Of a DNA stretch of 64,000 bases, positions 1 through 54,185 are shown piece after piece. A program made the position numbers and the translations under genes. Numbering within the stretch: position 1 is the first letter of the stretch; the number at the start of each line of letters is the position of its first letter. Under the pieces are notes generated by a model that worked only from the letters and a program-made list of their open reading frames with translations, was not told the DNA's origin and made no database searches. This DNA is from Deltaproteobacteria bacterium ADurb.Bin151. Lineage in GTDB: Bacteria; Desulfobacterota; Syntrophia; Syntrophales; Smithellaceae. The DNA is taken from contig MWDG01000001.1 of assembly GCA_002070455.1 (NCBI GenBank), positions 240-64,239 of the forward strand, read 5' to 3'.

Positions 1-1376
1 CCTTCCAACTCCTGACGGTTGTATCCGCTTGTCTGAACCGCGTTTTCGTTGACAAAGAGGATCTTCCCGTCCAGACTTGTTCTGACAACAACTTCAGGGA
101 TCGTGTTGACCAGCCGTGTGTATAATTCCTCACTTTCGCGCAAGGCTTCCTCTGTTTTTTTCCGCTCAGTGACATCAGTGTTTATTGCTAACAGTCCTGT
201 TACTTTGCCAGTCTCATCCTTAATGGCATCTGCACGGAGCATAACAGTTAACCTGCGCCCATCCTTGGCTATGTCCTCTACTTCTCCACTCCACGAACCT
301 CCATCCATGATGGTCTTAAATACGTTGCGTGCAACATCCTGATTAACATAAACGCTTTTCGCCACTCCATCTTTACGGAGTTCTTCAGCTGTGTATCCTA
401 AAAGATTGGTAAATGCTTTGTTTTGATAGAAATGATTGCCCTGCTTATCCGCCATTCCAATTGCATCGCTCGAACCTTCAATCGCTTTTTTGAATAAAAG
501 AAGTTCTTCCTGTACTCGTTTGCTTTCGGTGATGTCACGAACAATGGCCTGAATGTAATATTTCCCCCGGTCGTTGAAGGCGTTCAGGCTGACTTCTGTG
601 TCAAAAAGCGTTCCATCGTAACGACGATGCTGCAGTTCGTAGGATTGGGGATGACCGTTAATCGCTGCTCTTGCCTTCTTAAGGGTTTTTTCTCTGGTTT
701 TGCTTCCATCCGGCTGAAATTCCGGCATGAACCGGTCAAAAGAATGTCCGATAATCTGTTCCTTTGTGCAGCCGAGCATCTCCATGGCCTTCTGGTTGCA
801 ATCAATGAATATATTTTCATATGCTAAGAAAATGGCATCCGTGGAATGTTCGAAAAGGCTTTTGTATTTAGTTTCGCTTTCACGCAGGGCATCCTCTGAT
901 TGTTTACGTTGGGTAATATCGAAGAAAACGCAGGCGAAACGGTTAGGCGCTGGCTGAAAGCTTGTTACCATAAAATATTTGTTCAGCACATTTGAATAGT
1001 TCTCGAAGACAGCCGGTTCACCCGTCAGCGCCACTCGCCCATAGGTCTCTATCCAGTAATGCTCCGTACCCGGCAGTACTTCCAGAACCGTTCTGCCGAG
1101 AATGTCATTTGCTTTCAAACCGGTTATGCGTTCGAAGGCCGGGTTGACAGACAAAAAACGATAATCAACCGGCTGTCCCTTGTCATTACAAATGACCTCA
1201 TGCAGAGCAAATCCTTCCAGCATTTCACGGAAGGTGGCTTCGTAATCCTGCTGTGTCTGATTATGATTCATCATGTTTTGGTCAGACAGGGATTGCCCTG
1301 TTTTATGCGTTTTCTTTTTGAAATCAGAATTTTCTACGATAAGTGCCCGCGTGGTCCTGGATGAATCTTTCTTCAT
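1..1376 (-). CDS. Multi-PAS/PAC sensor protein, N-terminal ~458 aa (partial; C-terminus lies beyond the window start)
   Basis: Absent from the ORF track because there is no stop in the window. Reverse-strand translation from ATG (comp. 1376-1374) reads MKKDSSRTTRALIVENSDFKKKTHKTGQSLSDQNMMNHNQTQQDYEATFREMLEGFALHEVICNDKGQPVDYRFLSVNPAFERITG... and stays open to position 1 (...ILFVNENAVQTSGYNRQELEG). It has repeated PAS-like blocks with D(I/V)T(E/Q)(R/S)K PAC boundaries. Confidence 0.8.
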   Translation of the reverse strand, partial: MKKDSSRTTRALIVENSDFKKKTHKTGQSLSDQNMMNHNQTQQDYEATFREMLEGFALHEVICNDKGQPVDYRFLSVNPAFERITGLKANDILGRTVLEVLPGTEHYWIETYGRVALTGEPAVFENYSNVLNKYFMVTSFQPAPNRFACVFFDITQRKQSEDALRESETKYKSLFEHSTDAIFLAYENIFIDCNQKAMEMLGCTKEQIIGHSFDRFMPEFQPDGSKTREKTLKKARAAINGHPQSYELQHRRYDGTLFDTEVSLNAFNDRGKYYIQAIVRDITESKRVQEELLLFKKAIEGSSDAIGMADKQGNHFYQNKAFTNLLGYTAEELRKDGVAKSVYVNQDVARNVFKTIMDGGSWSGEVEDIAKDGRRLTVMLRADAIKDETGKVTGLLAINTDVTERKKTEEALRESEELYTRLVNTIPEVVVRTSLDGKILFVNENAVQTSGYNRQELE

Positions 1377-1564: not shown

Positions 1565-3679
1565 CTATCTTCTTGCCTTGTGGTATCCCGCTTTTATCGC
1601 ATCCTCTTCGGAGTCGAATTCCACCCGGTGATAGGCCTCAACGGCATTGTAGTATTTCATGCCGGGAAGATGATATCTTTTACTGTCCCGATTGCCGATA
1701 ACTTTTACCTTTTGTGCGGGCGCAGGAGACACAGAAGATGTTTTTACCGGAGCAGTTGCCTGAACCGCAGGTTGTGTTGTCACCGGTGTTTTTACCGCAG
1801 GTTTAGCCTGTACGACAGGGGTAGCTGTTGCGGGTGTTTTTACCGGAGTAGTTGCTTGAACTGCAGGTTGTGTTGTCACCGGTGTTTTTGCCGCAGGTTT
1901 AGCCTGTGCGACAGGGGTAGCTGTTGCGGGTGTTTTTACCAGAGCAGTTGCCTGAACCGCAGGCTGTGTTGTCACCGGTGTTTTTACCGCAGGTTTAGCC
2001 TGTACGACAGGGGTAGCTGTTGCGGGTGTTTTTACCGGAGTAGTTGCTTGAACTGCAGGTTGTGTTGTCACCGGTGTTTTTGCCGCAGGTTTAGCCTGTA
2101 CGACAGGGGTAGTTGTTGCGGGTGTTTTTACCGGAGCAGTTGCTTGAACCGCAGGCTGTGTTGTCACCGGTGTTTTTGCCGCAGGTTTAGCCTGTGCAAC
2201 AGGAACCGATGTATCCGGAAATCCAGCTGTTGCCGCACCGGTTGTTTTTACCATTGCTTTTGGTTGTTCTGGAACGGTACCGGCAGAGGGTGTTTTTGAG
2301 GGAGCTGTTGTATCGGCTATAATCTCTTCTTCCTCGGAAATTTTACGGTTGTATATGTTGGGACGGAACTGCGCAGTTCCTTCTGAATCAATCCACGCTG
2401 TCACATATACAATATTAATGGGAATAGGAGAAGGGAGGTTAATGCTCCGTGTTTTTCCCTTGTTGATGGCGGACTTTATGGCTTCTTCGGAACCCATGGG
2501 AGTGTCCTGCAGCAGGTAGGCGGCCAGATCTATGGGGTCTTTAACCCTTATACATCCGTGACTGAAAGCGCGCGGAAATCTCTGGAAAAGTTTTTTTGTC
2601 GTGGTATCATGCAGATAAATATCATGCGGGTTGGTAAACATGAATTTTATACGGCCAAGGGAATTCCCCGGTCCCGGATCCTGGCGCAACAAAAGAGGGA
2701 AATTATTTGCCGAGTAGCTGGACCAGTTTATTGTGCTGGGGTCAATCCGCTGGTTTGCACGATATACCCGCATGCGGGACCGGCTTAAATATCCCGGATT
2801 TTTTTTTAGTTTCGGAAGATATTCCTTGGATGCGATGCTGTATGGGACTGACCAGGCCGGATTGATAATCAGGTTTGTGATGAGGCCATCGAACTCAGGA
2901 GTCTGTTGGGTTTTTTTCCCAACAATGACGGGCATGGTTAATACAGGTTTGCCATCTTCAAAAAGATTGAGGGTGAAGTCTGTGATGTTTATTAAAATAT
3001 AACGATTTTCCTGAAGAGGTGGCAGCTTACTGCAGCGTTCTATGGTTGCCGAAAGTTGTTTGATGCGTTCTCTTGCCGGCACGTTGAGTTCTTTTAAGGT
3101 TTCCGCCCCCACAATACCATTGGCAGTGAGGCCGTGGCGTATCTGGAACCTCTGTACGGCTTCCTTGAGCATTTCGTCAAAAACATTATCCTGATTGACT
3201 AATTCGGCCGGATCATTTTTTGTGGCCGGCTTTTTTTTGGGCAAAGGGGGGCTTCCATTCCGGTTTAAATCAAGACCGTTGACTGTCGGGTCACGGTGCG
3301 TCTGGGATACTGGTATAGTTTCAATGAGATTTCCATTGACAGCATCAAGCTGATTCGGTTTGTGGGCAGGCTCAAGATCTCCACTGACGATAAGGCGTTT
3401 TCTCAAAAAAGAGACACGATCATTCCGGTCTCCTTCGCGCAGATCCCGACCGGATGGAATCTGAGGCCATCCGCCCTCATCTGCGATTTGCAGATAATCG
3501 GAAATGGCTTTTTCCAGTGCTGAAATATCGCACAGCTGGCGTCTTTCGGACAAAGATTCGTCTGCCGCCAGAGCGTAAAACGGAAGGAAAGTGAATAGAA
3601 TCGCGCAGCAGAACATTCGGATGAGGTGTTGTGATGCGGGAAGTTCAGGAATACGTGCTGTGCGGGGGGAATCTACCAA
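1565..3679 (-). CDS. YcbB/LdtD-type L,D-transpeptidase (PG-binding plus YkuD domains) with a C-terminal Pro/Thr-rich tandem-repeat tail and a small terminal sunset-like domain
   Basis: 704-aa ORF. Contains HGLTANGIVGAETLKELNVP (PG_binding_1-like) and IYLHDTTTKKLFQRFPRAFSHGCIRV (YkuD catalytic Cys motif). Hydrophobic N-terminus MFCCAILFTFLPFYALAADE. The start is ambiguous: TTG at 3679 overlapping the upstream stop, or ATG at 3616. Confidence 0.85.
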   Translation of the reverse strand: MVDSPRTARIPELPASQHLIRMFCCAILFTFLPFYALAADESLSERRQLCDISALEKAISDYLQIADEGGWPQIPSGRDLREGDRNDRVSFLRKRLIVSGDLEPAHKPNQLDAVNGNLIETIPVSQTHRDPTVNGLDLNRNGSPPLPKKKPATKNDPAELVNQDNVFDEMLKEAVQRFQIRHGLTANGIVGAETLKELNVPARERIKQLSATIERCSKLPPLQENRYILINITDFTLNLFEDGKPVLTMPVIVGKKTQQTPEFDGLITNLIINPAWSVPYSIASKEYLPKLKKNPGYLSRSRMRVYRANQRIDPSTINWSSYSANNFPLLLRQDPGPGNSLGRIKFMFTNPHDIYLHDTTTKKLFQRFPRAFSHGCIRVKDPIDLAAYLLQDTPMGSEEAIKSAINKGKTRSINLPSPIPINIVYVTAWIDSEGTAQFRPNIYNRKISEEEEIIADTTAPSKTPSAGTVPEQPKAMVKTTGAATAGFPDTSVPVAQAKPAAKTPVTTQPAVQATAPVKTPATTTPVVQAKPAAKTPVTTQPAVQATTPVKTPATATPVVQAKPAVKTPVTTQPAVQATALVKTPATATPVAQAKPAAKTPVTTQPAVQATTPVKTPATATPVVQAKPAVKTPVTTQPAVQATAPVKTSSVSPAPAQKVKVIGNRDSKRYHLPGMKYYNAVEAYHRVEFDSEEDAIKAGYHKARR
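1741..2205. repeat. Tandem 96-bp repeat, ~4.8 copies (units begin at 1741, 1837, 1933, 2029, 2125), inside the L,D-transpeptidase gene
   Basis: Direct reading: successive 96-nt units (tttttaccggagcagttgcctgaaccgcaggttgtgttgtcaccggtg tttttaccgcaggtttagcctgtacgacaggggtagctgttgcgggtg) differ by only a few nt. Each unit is two related 48-nt halves and encodes AKPAAKTPVTTQPAVQATAPVKTPATTTPVVQ-type 32-aa units. Confidence 0.9.
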
Positions 3680-8229: not shown

Positions 8230-8230
8230 A

Positions 8231-8266
8231 ACAGGCTGGCAGGCTGTAGACTGTTAGGCTGTTAGG
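8231..8266 (+). repeat. Degenerate 7-8-nt tandem array (acaggctg gcaggctg tagactg ttaggctg ttagg) starting 1 nt after the prpE stop
   Basis: Direct reading. Units match those of the arrays at 14520-14621 and 54146-54180 (GGCTGTTA/TAGACT words). Confidence 0.6.
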
Positions 8267-8272
8267 AAAAAG

Positions 8273-8316
8273 AAGGCCGGCTGCAATAAATATTGAGCCG
8301 GCCTTTGTATTTTTTC
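8273..8316. terminator. Bidirectional rho-independent terminator between convergent prpE and lepB
   Basis: Stem aaggccggc (8273-8281) / gccggcctt (8297-8305). A T-run follows on the + strand (8310-8315) and a T-run follows on the - strand (complement of aaaaag 8267-8272). Confidence 0.75.
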
Positions 8317-9017: not shown

Positions 9018-9473
9018 TCAGTAAATTTCCATGGCGCATCCGCCGGCTAGCGTTCCGCCGAGTTCACGGCATTTTTCCAGGATTTCCTCGGTGATTTTCC
9101 CTTTTGCGATAACAGGGGTGAAAACATTTTTAAATTTGTAACCCAGGGCGATGCGCTCGATAGCCCTGAGGGCCCCCGATCCGTCATTGCCGGCGCTGAT
9201 GAAAACGACATAGGGCTTGCGGAAAACTTTGTCCTGGGCGTCTCCGTATGTCCGGTCAAAAAAATCCTTGATCATGCCGGACATATAGCCAAAGTTTTCC
9301 GGCGTGCCGATTGCAAGACCGTCACAGGTTAAGAGGTCGTCAATGGTCGCATCTACAGCTTTTTTAAAATTGACCTCCACGCCGTCGATGACCTTTGCGC
9401 CTTCATAGACGGCTTCGGCCATTTGCCGGGTATGCCCGGTCTGGGAATGATAAACAACTAAAATTCGGGTCAT
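9018..9473 (-). CDS. Flavodoxin-family protein
   Basis: 151 aa. Starts MTRILVVYHSQTGHTRQMAEAV, a typical flavodoxin-fold FMN-binding N-terminus. Confidence 0.75.
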   Translation of the reverse strand: MTRILVVYHSQTGHTRQMAEAVYEGAKVIDGVEVNFKKAVDATIDDLLTCDGLAIGTPENFGYMSGMIKDFFDRTYGDAQDKVFRKPYVVFISAGNDGSGALRAIERIALGYKFKNVFTPVIAKGKITEEILEKCRELGGTLAGGCAMEIY

Positions 9474-9480
9474 AAAATAA

Positions 9481-9639
9481 AATGGGTAAAGGGTTAGGGG
9501 TCATAGGTTAGGGGTGATGGATAATGGGGAAGAGGTAATAGGTGAGGAGTGAGGGGAGAAGAGTCAGAAAAAAAGATTTTTCATCCCCTAACCCTTCACT
9601 ACTCACTCCTGACCCCTAACCCATAACCCCTGACCTTTC
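9481..9639. repeat. Phased heptamer array forming a long imperfect inverted repeat (G-rich arm 9481-9564, C-rich arm 9591-9639)
   Basis: Direct reading. Left arm: aatgggt aaagggt taggggt cataggt taggggt gatggat aatgggg aagaggt aataggt gaggagt gagggga gaagagt. Spacer: cagaaaaaaagatttttc. Right arm: acccttc actactc actcctg accccta acccata acccctg acctttc. The right arm abuts the tpiA stop codon (comp. 9641-9639). Confidence 0.8.
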
Positions 9640-10385
9640 TATGGCATTTTGGAAATAATGCCCAGGAAGCCATCGGCTTTCAGCGATGCCCCGCCGACCA
9701 ACGCTCCGTCGATATCTTCCATCGCGATCAACTCAGTGATATTATCTTTCGTCACACTGCCGCCATAGAGAATACGAACATCAGCGGCCGCACAGCCGTA
9801 TATTTCAACAAGAAGCCGGCGAATGAAGTCATGAACATCTTCAGCCTGTGGCGGTGTTGCGACCAAGCCCGTTCCGATTGCCCAGACCGGTTCATAGGCG
9901 ATGACGACGTCGTCCAGCTTGTCAATTCCGTCCAGCGCGCCGCGAACCTGACGGTTCACAACTGCCTCCGTGATCCCTTTGTTTCTTTCACCGTCCGTTT
10001 CGCCGACACAGACAATAGGCTTCAAACCGGTTGCCAGCGCTTTCTTCACTTTCAAATTAACGGTTTCTTCGCTTTCGACAAAATACTTGCGGCGCTCCGA
10101 ATGCCCGATGATGACGTACGTGCAACCTGCATCTTTCAGCATCAGCGGAGAAACTTCGCCGGTGTACGCTCCCTTGTCTTCGAAATACATGTTTTGAGCA
10201 GCAATCGCCACAGTTGATCCTGTTAGGATTTCTCTGACGCTCTGCAGAGCGGTAAACGGTGGAGCAACCACCACCTCTCCGTTTTTTAAACCGGCCGTTC
10301 CTTCTTTTACTGTGCGGGCCAGTGCGACGGATTCGTCAATGGTGTTATTCATCTTCCAGTTGCCGGCAACAATCCATTTTCTCAT
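9639..10385 (-). CDS. tpiA: Triosephosphate isomerase
   Basis: 248 aa. AGNWKMN, IIGHSERR and AYEPVWAIGTG motifs. Confidence 0.95.
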   Translation of the reverse strand: MRKWIVAGNWKMNNTIDESVALARTVKEGTAGLKNGEVVVAPPFTALQSVREILTGSTVAIAAQNMYFEDKGAYTGEVSPLMLKDAGCTYVIIGHSERRKYFVESEETVNLKVKKALATGLKPIVCVGETDGERNKGITEAVVNRQVRGALDGIDKLDDVVIAYEPVWAIGTGLVATPPQAEDVHDFIRRLLVEIYGCAAADVRILYGGSVTKDNITELIAMEDIDGALVGGASLKADGFLGIISKMP

Positions 10386-14141: not shown

Positions 14142-14522
14142 ATGAGCGGCATTAAAATGAATATGGATGAATTCAGCAGGCTGGCAAAGAATCCCGATGA
14201 AAAGCCTTTTGTCATGTTGAATCTGCTCAAGTTCAAAGGTGCACAGGGGCAGGCTTCTTACACCCGCTACATGAAAGAGGCCGGGGAATTTGTTGCAGGC
14301 GTCGGAGGAAAAGTTCTGTATCTTGGAAAACCTGATGAACTGCTCAACGGCAATGAAAAATGGGATCTGCTCATGCTGGTGCATTATCCATCCCGCAAAG
14401 CATTTCTTTCCATGGCCAACAATCCCGATTATCTTAAAGTACATCGTTTCCGAGAAGAGGGGGTCGAACGGGCTGTCCTTTATGCGACCGATCCGATCAG
14501 GTTCAGGGATATAGCCATTTAG
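14142..14522 (+). CDS. DUF1330-family protein (dimeric alpha/beta-barrel-like)
   Basis: 126 aa. FVMLNLLKFKG...LMLVHYPSRKAFLSMANNPDY pattern resembles DUF1330. Confidence 0.6.
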   Translation: MSGIKMNMDEFSRLAKNPDEKPFVMLNLLKFKGAQGQASYTRYMKEAGEFVAGVGGKVLYLGKPDELLNGNEKWDLLMLVHYPSRKAFLSMANNPDYLKVHRFREEGVERAVLYATDPIRFRDIAI

Positions 14523-14621
14523 ACTATAGGCTATTAGGCTTTTAGCCTAATAGGAAGAGCGCACAGCGCCCAACAAATCAACCTAACAGTCTAACACGCT
14601 AACAGCCTATAGCCTGATAGC
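14520..14621 (+). repeat. Phased ~8-nt degenerate tandem array in direct then inverted orientation (long imperfect hairpin); its first unit contains the TAG stop of the DUF1330 gene
   Basis: Direct reading. First half: tagactat aggctatt aggctttt agcctaat aggaagag. Centre: cgcacagcgcccaacaaatcaa. Second half: cctaacag tctaacac gctaacag cctatag cctgatag c. Inner perfect hairpin ctattaggc-ttt-tagcctaat; outer pairing ctataggct / agcctatag. Confidence 0.75.
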
Positions 14622-26992: not shown

Positions 26993-27011
26993 AAGTATTT
27001 TCCCGGGTTCA

Positions 27012-27049
27012 ATAAAAAAGGGGGAACCTTCAGGTTCCTCCTTTTTTTA
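27012..27049 (+). terminator. Rho-independent terminator after the acyl-CoA dehydrogenase gene
   Basis: aaaaaagggggaacc-ttca-ggttcctcctttttttat: GC-rich stem, 4-nt loop, T7 run. Confidence 0.8.
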
Positions 27050-33246: not shown

Positions 33247-33354
33247 AAATATGGTATGCTCCCCAATGGTAATAATCGGCAATTTGTCTAACATATCGGC
33301 CTGGTGCTTGCAATGCCTTTGTTCAGGCTAATGTGCGGGCCTTATCATTGCCCA

Positions 33355-33388
33355 ATAAAAAAGCCGGGGGTAGGCTCCCGGCTTTTAC
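33355..33388 (-). terminator. Rho-independent terminator downstream of the TetR gene
   Basis: Stem agccggg (33362-33368) / cccggct (33377-33383). On the - strand it is followed by TTTTTT (complement of aaaaaa 33356-33361). Confidence 0.7.
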
Positions 33389-36350: not shown

Positions 36351-36404
36351 TTTTTTAAAAAATTCATATTCTTTGTGGACTCACGGGAGCTCCTGATTAC
36401 ATGA

Positions 36405-36444
36405 AAAAGCCCTGCCTTCAGCTGACAGAGGGCAGGGCTTTTTC
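36405..36444. terminator. Rho-independent terminator between the convergent thiolase and hsp20 genes
   Basis: Stem gccctgcc (36409-36416) / ggcagggc (36431-36438). Flanked by aaaaa upstream and ttttt downstream, so it is usable on both strands. Confidence 0.8.
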
Positions 36445-36447
36445 GGT

Positions 36448-36985: not shown

Positions 36986-37061
36986 CTTTTTCCTTTAGCC
37001 TTTATCCTTTTTCCTTTTGCCTTTTTCCTTGAACCTTAGCCCTTGGCCCTTGAACCTTTTT
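36986..37061 (-). repeat. Phased heptamer array (CTTNNNC) x10-11 on the + strand, which reads (GNNNAAG)n on the sHSP mRNA; fills the spacer between the 2nd and 3rd hsp20 genes
   Basis: Direct reading from 36986: ctttttc ctttagc ctttatc ctttttc cttttgc ctttttc cttgaac cttagcc cttggcc cttgaac ctttttt. The array abuts the TAA of the upstream hsp20 (comp. 37064-37062). Confidence 0.85.
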
Positions 37062-41319: not shown

Positions 41320-41339
41320 AGAGAAGAATGTCTGTTGCA

Positions 41340-41376
41340 AGCCCGAAACCGTGAAATACGGTTTCGGGCTTTTTTA
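41340..41376 (+). terminator. Rho-independent terminator after dnaK
   Basis: agcccgaaacc-gtgaaatac-ggtttcgggct followed by ttttt. Confidence 0.85.
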
Positions 41377-54145: not shown

Positions 54146-54180
54146 AGTGTAATAGTCTAATAGGCAATAGTCTATCAGCC
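54146..54180 (-). repeat. Degenerate 7-8-nt tandem array (tagtctaa taggcaa tagtctat cagcc on +) beginning 5 nt after the gdhA stop
   Basis: Direct reading. The reverse complement ggctgatagactattgcctattagacta shares TAGACT and GGCT words with the arrays at 8231 and 14520. Confidence 0.55.
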
Positions 54181-54185
54181 TTTTT

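Follow-up and report, generated by a model that had tools for sequence, protein, structure and literature searches.

The window analysed here is a stretch of 64,000 nucleotides from contig MWDG01000001.1 of Deltaproteobacteria bacterium ADurb.Bin151 (assembly GCA_002070455.1, family Smithellaceae). It carries a gene cluster in the order gap-pgk-tpiA-flavodoxin-lepB, in which lepB, encoding signal peptidase I, overlaps the end of the flavodoxin gene. These gene names, given in a first-pass annotation made from the sequence alone, are right according to Pfam (Gp_dh, PGK, TIM, Flavodoxin_1/FMN_red and Peptidase_S26). The element under study is the spacer between tpiA and the flavodoxin gene (9474-9638, 165 nt), which is filled by a pair of heptamer arrays between two open reading frames (ORFs) that both lie on the minus strand. 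In the direction of transcription, the features of this junction are the following.

9639-9641, minus strand: tpiA stop codon TAG, at the end of the ORF 9639-10385 (assigned by translation and by Pfam TIM, E=6e-95); the array starts at the next base.
9585-9638, minus strand: 5' arm in the mRNA, about eight G-rich heptamers, seven ACYNNNN units on the plus strand; paired from 9635 inward in the minimum free energy (MFE) fold.
9565-9584, minus strand: A/T-rich centre, sense GAUGAAAAAUCUUUUUUUCUGAC region, with the apical loop at 9575-9580.
9481-9564, minus strand: 3' arm in the mRNA, 12 C-rich, nearly G-free heptamers, NNNRGGT-like on the plus strand.
9474-9491, minus strand: U-rich tail CUUUACCCAUUUUAUUUU, lying after the GC-rich stem and running straight into the flavodoxin AUG.
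9471-9473, minus strand: flavodoxin start codon, at the head of the ORF 9018-9473 (151 residues, Pfam Flavodoxin_1/FMN_red), on which several gene callers agree.

Read on the plus strand in phase from 9481, the left arm consists of 12 heptamers. The form NNNRGGT, claimed for the whole arm, holds exactly for seven of them and with a one-base miss for each of the other five (9516, 9523, 9544, 9551 and 9558). After the A/T-rich centre, all seven heptamers of the right arm (9591-9639) match ACYNNNN, and the last of them touches the tpiA stop codon, as had been described. In the sense orientation, the units of the 5' arm are AAAGGTC, AGGGGTT, ATGGGTT, AGGGGTC, AGGAGTG, AGTAGTG, AAGGGTT and AGGGGAT. 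Neighbouring units agree at only 65-72%, the RGGT/ACY core being constant and the remainder variable. Tandem Repeats Finder (TRF) gives a period of 7 for the spacer, with 10.9 and 7.3 copies. A pattern of seven ACY units (at most 2 mismatches) has 7 matches in the window, all in the tpiA-flavodoxin spacer, and a pattern of five RGGT units (at most 3 mismatches) has 13, of which 12 are in the spacer; dinucleotide shuffles yield 0.00 and 0.03 matches, respectively. The heptamer array is therefore real and well above chance, and the description of 12 and seven phased heptamers around an A/T spacer is borne out by the in-phase reading, by TRF and by the shuffles. On the plus strand, the 3' mRNA arm has an excess of G over C of +36 across 76 nt. 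The element is thus, with near certainty, an inverted pair of degenerate heptamer simple sequence repeat (SSR) arrays filling an intercistronic spacer.

No Shine-Dalgarno (SD) sequence was found ahead of the flavodoxin AUG, and the TTTTATTTTATG-type end of the spacer is kept among array-bearing relatives. Four of nine contigs (L161-L169; L numbers denote fetched loci) have the flavodoxin called 17 residues short (134 vs 151 residues, window 9423-9473), probably because the start without SD sequence behind the array misleads gene callers; in the long form, a conserved N-terminal motif starts at residue 3. The lepB calls of these contigs vary as well (209 vs 237 residues). A small ORF in the loop (ATGAAAAATCTTTTTTTCTGA, a potential peptide of 6 residues) was dropped, as it is absent from relatives.

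We then considered the structure of the transcribed spacer. The sense RNA has an MFE of -72.3 kcal/mol (z = -6.5 against shuffles), with a predicted hairpin of 56 pairs, including 9 G-U pairs, closed by a six-base apical loop at 9575-9580. An unpaired internal loop of 29 nt (9516-9544) takes up the four units that the longer arm has in excess, so that the fold agrees with the long hairpin with about four extra left-arm units that had been proposed. The GC-rich stem extends from 9635, 4 nt past the tpiA stop, to a last GC pair at 9492, 18 nt ahead of the flavodoxin AUG. Taken alone, the first 62 nt after the stop reach only -2.6 kcal/mol, the stability requiring the distal arm. For the window spacer and seven orthologues alike, however, shuffling the order of units within the arms yields equally stable folds (the fraction of permutations that match or exceed the native stability is 0.11-0.96). 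Since the native order is never significantly better, the z-score is no evidence for selection, and selection on hairpin stability was rejected by this permutation, stability being set by the composition of the arms. The hairpin is an automatic, register-tolerant outcome of two inverted arrays with complementary cores.

Such a hairpin might be an efficient intrinsic terminator that ends gap-pgk-tpiA, with flavodoxin and lepB transcribed from a promoter of their own. The base of the stem is GC-rich, with A-rich sequence upstream of it and a U-rich tail behind it. Moreover, 8 of 17 array pairs have a run of at least four T behind the 3' arm, against 7.5% for the background, as do all tpiA-flavodoxin orthologues; in relatives, T4 to T8 stand beside the last unit, and L001 has T8 directly after it. 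However, the stem of the window is far longer than that of a typical terminator, its U-tract is interrupted and displaced by 9 nt from the GC stem, the consensus terminator scan makes no call on the spacer hairpin, and octamer-type pairs are without T-runs. In addition, the AUG lies only 18 nt from the stem, and a consensus promoter scan finds no sigma-70-like promoter on the sense strand within the spacer; flavodoxin and lepB therefore probably rely on read-through. Co-transcription of tpiA and the flavodoxin gene is also ancestral, judging from relatives in which the two genes overlap or are 4 nt apart. Efficient termination at this site thus seems very improbable to us. A search of Rfam gives no match at the gathering score, the two hits found being at chance level (21.8 and 25.5 bits vs thresholds of 90 and 96). 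Canonical terminator-like hairpins with AAAAAG...CTTTTT flanks occur elsewhere in the window (8267-8315, 27005-27045, 33350-33385, 36400-36445 and 41335-41375), and many repeat arrays are bounded by flanks of the same type (AAAAAGG...CCTTTTT). Given this similarity of flanks, arrays may be seeded from the flanks of bidirectional terminators.

The first-pass annotation also stressed the potential of either strand to form a G-quadruplex (G4), with four or more G3-4 tracts and short loops on the mRNA strand as well. A regulatory switch could be built on this, the G-rich arm controlling termination, processing or translation as an RNA or DNA quadruplex. The mRNA arm does contain five G3-4 tracts, and G4 formation in vitro is on record for kindred G-rich heptamer repeats (PMC4692102). 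The potential is present on the plus strand, where a motif of four G3+ tracts exists only with loops of 10-11 nt, and is wanting on the mRNA strand, where a gap of 18 nt separates tracts three and four and no motif of four G3+ tracts has loops of at most 12 nt. With G4 energies switched on, the hairpin remains ahead by about 70 kcal/mol, and in the isolated G-rich arm G4 contributes just -4.4 kcal/mol, compared with -72 for the hairpin. Furthermore, orthologous arrays have 1-3 G3+ tracts, at least four G3 tracts being found in the window species only, and sister arrays of the window (AGGCTGTT, AAAAAGG and AGTCTAAT types, described below) are unable to form G4. We therefore rejected G4 as the defining property of the element, as it is energetically negligible beside the hairpin and its tracts are not conserved, and a G4 switch appears to us extremely unlikely. 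The plus strand of the DNA may nevertheless adopt a G4.

To place the spacer in evolution, we relied on orthologous loci. An index of the assembly collection lists the exact tpiA protein in 291 blocks, and the tpiA genes closest to it, at 89-91% protein identity, come from Smithella/Smithellaceae metagenome-assembled genomes (MAGs). In a metagenome scan with the flavodoxin protein as query, most matches are homologues in other gene contexts: tpiA lies upstream only in L081, L085, L092, L101 and L102, and partial spacers were obtained from L082-L084 and L094. The comparable elements that were to be expected at the same junction of related genomes do occur there, in L001, L002, L003, L004, L008, L040, L041, L081 and L092. 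Their common layout is the stop codon, an A-run with GG, G-rich heptamers, an A/T centre (GAAAAA..TTTTCAT), ACC/GCC-type heptamers, a T-run and the ATG. The arms contain between 4 and 12 units, whose sequences differ widely (GGTACAA seven times in L040), and the spacer is fully restructured between species with about 90% protein identity. More distant relatives have a spacer of 4 nt (L007), overlapping genes (L018), or unrelated hairpin or REP-like (repetitive extragenic palindromic) inserts at this place (L005, L006, L009, L011 and L012). The array is thus dispensable and confined to one lineage, and in the ancestor the two genes probably met in a tight junction. Among the inserts, a GTCATTGCGAAC...GTGGCAATC-type element is shared by L005, L006 and L009 in the first 60 nt or so past the tpiA stop, and the spacers of L011 and L012 contain a set of CCCCC/GGGGG palindromes. 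The tpiA-flavodoxin spacer looks like a hot spot for hairpin insertion.

Within the species, nine contigs from different metagenomes and L041 share the 165-nt spacer with a single G/T single-nucleotide polymorphism (SNP). No copy-number polymorphism was detected among these ten assemblies, which are consensus sequences from which minor variants would escape; at the level of consensus assemblies, the spacer shows no sign of phase variation. L041 (JAKLGH010000026.1, 735 nt) is assigned to a Patescibacteria bin and contains the 3' end of this Smithella tpiA, the same array (one SNP) and the start of the flavodoxin gene; it is probably mis-binned.

Two features of the arrays suggest that their arms exchange information. 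Firstly, the central 48 nt (sense 45-92, plus strand about 9550-9597) align better with relatives in reverse complement than in sense (scores of 41 vs 22 for L081, 32 vs 20 for L001 and 27 vs 20 for L040). As the flanks are collinear, the centre of the quasi-palindrome has flipped in the window species; this inversion of the loop and inner units is seen relative to L081, L001, L003 and L040, and resembles the flip-flop at small hairpins in organelle genomes. Secondly, in L092 the first arm is made of GGC units and the second of GCC units, in place of the GGT and ACC of the window clade, a coordinated change that takes in every unit of both arms. The flipped centre and this covariation of cores fit inter-arm recombination or template switching, and selection on pairing is not required to account for them. 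From these comparisons it is largely established that the array arose within the Smithella lineage, at a junction that is tight in other relatives, and that its 7-nt units are gained and lost over time, with exchange between the arms.

These data bear directly on the simplest alternative, in which the element is a pure mutational by-product without effect on expression: slippage would expand units of 7-8 nt in whatever spacer is free of constraint, template switching would keep the arms alike and the hairpin would be incidental. The dispensable and lineage-specific character of the element, its complete restructuring between species of about 90% protein identity, the unit order that is not optimised and the flipped centre all agree with such a by-product. 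Heptamers are also the commonest unit of long SSRs in prokaryotes and are ascribed to polymerase slippage (Mrazek 2007, as reported in PMC4679880). Conversely, the ten assemblies of the species are without length polymorphism, a stem of -72 kcal/mol located 4 nt past a stop is hardly invisible to ribosomes, RNases and RNA polymerase, and the class as a whole shows the strong biases of position and orientation presented below. We consider a pure by-product unlikely, while giving it real weight.

Four further repeat elements of the window, with that of the tpiA-flavodoxin spacer, make up its five strong arrays.

8230-8266, plus strand: about 4.5 octamers AGGCTGTT, directly past the stop of acs (acetyl-CoA synthetase).
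14519-14621, no strand assigned: inverted octamer pair TTAGGCTA / CAGCCTAA, between convergent genes.
36986-37061, minus strand: 11 single-arm heptamers of sense NNAAAGG type, from the base after the Hsp20 stop.
54146-54185, minus strand: about 4 octamers, plus strand AGTCTAAT, just past the stop of gdh (glutamate dehydrogenase).

At a TRF score of at least 40, the five arrays cover 8233-8266, 9481-9635, 14519-14621, 36986-37061 and 54146-54174. All of them are intergenic, with a stop codon at a distance of 0-11 nt, which four of them abut and from which the gdh array ends 11 nt away; at 14519-14621, the stop codon of the DUF1330 gene is within the first unit. An AGRCTRTT-type octamer is common to the arrays at 8230, 14519 and 54146, while the Hsp20 array is built of AAAAAGG-like units. 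Downstream of the acs octamers, a canonical terminator hairpin is found at about 8276-8315. Elsewhere in the window, another tandem repeat (1739-2203; period of 96 nt with a sub-period of 48 nt, 4.8 copies, 93% matches) sits inside a minus-strand ORF of 704 residues (1565-3679) and presumably encodes a repetitive protein domain.

To describe the class more broadly, we used about 1.6 Mb of fetched loci, in which TRF (score of at least 40 and at least 3.5 copies, the informative setting) detects 88 non-redundant arrays, 71 of them intergenic. A lenient setting (score 30, at least 3 copies) gave a similar density everywhere and was discarded as noise. Among 67 classifiable arrays, 24 are found no more than 10 nt past a stop codon and have a G-rich sense strand, compared with 9% for random placement in the same gaps, and this is the enrichment near stop codons that the first-pass annotation had proposed to look for, here seen in the fetched loci. 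It persists when the vicinity of the anchor genes is removed (11 of 33 arrays, p = 1e-4). Arrays adjoining a stop have a G-rich sense strand in 23 cases and lack it in 2. Adjacent array pairs are also polar, the G-rich array preceding the C-rich one in 17 pairs and following it in 1 (p = 1.4e-4), a polarity that is the same read on both strands. These p-values are indicative only, since two anchor genes served to gather the loci and some arrays are orthologues of each other. The biases show, at the least, a purifying constraint tied to transcription or translation.

Polar pairs were also noted outside Smithella, directly after tpiA in a Chlorobiaceae MAG (L051, 6777-7006) and in Clostridium magnum (L078, 6753-6851), and twice in an Omnitrophota MAG (L047, 876-948 and 2150-2230). 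Other loci with such pairs are L119, L120, L129, L138, L142, L151 and L155-L159. The octamer pairs GAAGTTAG, GAGGGTGA/TCTCACCC and GGAAGAGC/TCCGCTCT recur at several loci of some metagenome contigs retrieved with the flavodoxin query.

The cyanobacterial short tandemly repeated repetitive (STRR) sequences, reportedly described by Mazel et al. in 1990 with the consensus units CCCCAGT, TTGGTCA and CAACAGT, are the class to which the array had first been likened. The likeness holds: STRR are tandem heptamers, intergenic and often within operons, with several unit families per genome and no established function. They differ from the present element by their unit sequences (as judged by these consensus units), by the phylum of their hosts and by being mostly near-perfect direct repeats. 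No exact tandem copies of STRR1-3 were found in the window, nor of GGGAATC, GGGGAYT, TAACTGA or the three Geobacter classes discussed below. Another comparison is with REP sequences and bacterial interspersed mosaic elements (BIME), which are said to stabilise mRNA in malEFG (a finding attributed to Newbury et al. 1987). As here, these are intercistronic or 3' hairpin repeats, able to protect upstream mRNA and to modulate operon polarity, and they are insertion hot spots. REP are, in contrast, copies of a single palindrome (about 35 nt) that a RAYT transposase has spread to separate sites, whereas the present units are tandem 7-mers with a locus-specific sequence. No further copy of the element, as expected for REP/BIME or for miniature inverted-repeat transposable elements, was found in the window or in the fetched loci, where other arrays use other units.

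The closest precedents are two. In Xanthomonas and Nostoc, GGGAATC and GGGGAYT repeats are biased towards non-coding DNA and lie between co-directional ORFs, on the coding strand and no further than 50 bp from the preceding stop; 70-75 convergent inverted heptamer pairs occur per Xanthomonas genome, and the type of such G-rich arrays, single or paired, is conserved across species while their length is not (Rehm et al. 2015, PMC4692102). According to the same study, the arrays are transcribed and their function is not known. The spacer element shares with them the tandem 7-nt units with G-tracts, the intergenic position between co-directional ORFs, the place right after the stop with a G-rich coding strand, the convergent inverted pairs forming a stem-loop, and a type that is kept among relatives with a variable length and sequence. 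It differs by its degenerate NNNRGGT units (65-72% matches instead of near-perfect identity) and by its host (Smithella, Syntrophales), whose genome also uses octamers and units without G-tracts. Unlike in Xanthomonas and Nostoc, there is also no preference here for four G4-competent units, and at least four consecutive intact G3+ tracts at heptamer spacing do not occur. In the window, tandem copies of GGGNATC or GGGGAYT are absent at 0 mismatches, with few matches at 1-2 mismatches. The second precedent is Geobacter metallireducens, in which dozens of paired tandem repeats of 7-9 nt lie on opposite strands, one of them between proB and proA (Aklujkar et al. 2009, PMC2700814). These 'global regulator binding sites' of classes 1-3 resemble the present element by their opposite-strand pairs and by the intra-operon spacer. 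They have three to five units and a variable spacing of the pair, in a host of the same broad phylum, and were read as protein-binding sites on DNA, without a test in that study. They differ by shorter arrays and by their consensus units (GTTGCTYN, TCTCCGTS and MTYCTGA), which are absent here. The statement that no equivalent is known from Desulfobacterota must thus be withdrawn, since an equivalent had already been catalogued in the same broad phylum.

Three other classes share part of these properties. Ribosome termination structures (RTS) are stable mRNA structures that come right after stop codons and are stronger in highly expressed genes, with a proposed role as insulators against re-initiation (Chemla et al. 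2020, PMC7518266). The spacer hairpin similarly offers stable pairing from 4 nt past the stop, at the edge of the footprint of the terminating ribosome; unlike RTS, which fold to -6 kcal/mol or lower in a local segment of 40 nt centred about 5 nt past the stop, it relies on long-range pairing of the arms, as the value for the first 62 nt indicates. The TAACTGA repeats of Beggiatoaceae, cyanobacteria and Bacteroidetes (MacGregor 2015, PMC4679880) are likewise tandem, intergenic and sporadically distributed, beside start regions poor in SD sequences, but they consist of one fixed unit, mostly just upstream of starts, and almost never form inverted pairs, with one indirect repeat in 170 sets. Finally, long simple sequence repeats (LSSR) are defined, in the account of Mrazek 2007 given by PMC4679880, as head-to-tail units of 5-11 nt extending beyond chance length; the present array exceeds chance in length and departs from LSSR by its unit identity of 65-72%, far from near-perfect.

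Binding of a multimeric protein is another possible reason for regular phasing, either on DNA (a ribbon-helix-helix protein like omega or MetJ, or IHF/HU) or on RNA (CsrA, S1 or Csp). Proposals of this kind were published for the Geobacter repeats (IHF/HU type, PMC2700814) and for the TAACTGA repeats (CsrA, S1 and Csp, PMC4679880). The 7-8-nt phasing, with a conserved RGGT core and a variable remainder, would suit such a protein, as would the recurrence of unit families within a genome (AGRCTRTT at three places of the window; GAAGTTAG, TCTCACCC and TCCGCTCT at several loci of L119-L151). However, units differ among the loci of one genome and among orthologous arrays, which makes a single sequence-specific reader unlikely, and the sites come after stop codons and not at promoters. 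Likeness to SD sequences is not a property of the class either. A binding array is therefore an explanation to which we give little credence. Mimicry of SD or anti-SD sequences by the arms was rejected class-wide: the tpiA array has four moderate SD-like clusters and the acs, DUF1330 and Hsp20 arrays have none.

The explanation that we prefer combines the identity, the origin and the bias of the arrays with an effect at the cistron boundary. As a whole it seems to us modestly favoured; its functional part is tentative, and we regard it as possible more than probable. Slippage would add and remove units, and exchange between the arms would preserve the complementarity of their cores. Arrays would persist only at the least constrained site, immediately behind a stop codon, and only when the sense strand is the G-rich one. 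Rho loads on C-rich, nearly G-free and unstructured RNA (rut sites), and a C-rich, G-poor tract of about 80 nt behind a stop would presumably load it. A C-rich arm would then be tolerated only where a G-rich arm, made earlier, pairs with it on emergence; single arrays would survive only with a G-rich sense strand, and pairs only with the G-rich arm first. At the tpiA boundary, the hairpin could stop post-termination ribosomes from scanning onward and shield the gap-pgk-tpiA segment from 3' exonucleases, and the interrupted U-rich tail could terminate a fraction of the transcripts, as a weak attenuator. Together, these effects would uncouple the output of the glycolytic genes from that of flavodoxin and lepB. 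The hairpin would also draw the stop close to the AUG and thereby make tolerable the insertion of 165 nt into a formerly tight junction. Any effect on the cistron boundary is probably modest and non-essential.

Several observations weigh against this combined explanation. Single-arm arrays such as that after Hsp20 form no hairpin, and a hairpin function therefore cannot account for the whole class. The element is dispensable, some relatives having no spacer at all; reordered units fold as well as the native ones; and, as to attenuation, the oversized stem and the broken, distant U-tract fall outside what the terminator scan recognises. The class statistics, moreover, come from loci gathered around two anchor genes and include orthologous arrays that are not independent. 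What the first-pass annotation proposed as a structured intercistronic element thus stands as an STRR-like array with a long hairpin inside an operon, its regulatory role being conjectural. A bolder version, in which stop-adjoining polar pairs of 7-8-nt arrays are a functionally coherent device shared across phyla, beyond independent accidents of slippage, seems rather improbable to us; such a device could be a Rho-masking 'zipper' hairpin that insulates post-termination ribosomes, or the product of a dedicated repeat-generating activity.

The element belongs to a known, functionally unexplained repeat class and is not a new kind of element. This class has been noted since 1990 and never explained, and the array after tpiA is itself an ordinary instance of it. 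In practice, such arrays mislead gene callers, and short contigs bearing them may be mis-binned, as with L041. The case brings the class to syntrophic Desulfobacterota, and it provides a natural series at a single orthologous spacer, which begins with overlapping genes or a junction of 4 nt, continues with other hairpin inserts and leads to heptamer pairs of 4-12 units, the centre being flipped in the window species. The proximity to stop codons, the G-rich sense strand and the G-rich-then-C-rich polarity reported for Xanthomonas are confirmed on independent taxa. Through these biases of position and polarity, the class becomes testable, whether for avoidance of Rho, for post-termination insulation or for protection of mRNA 3' ends.

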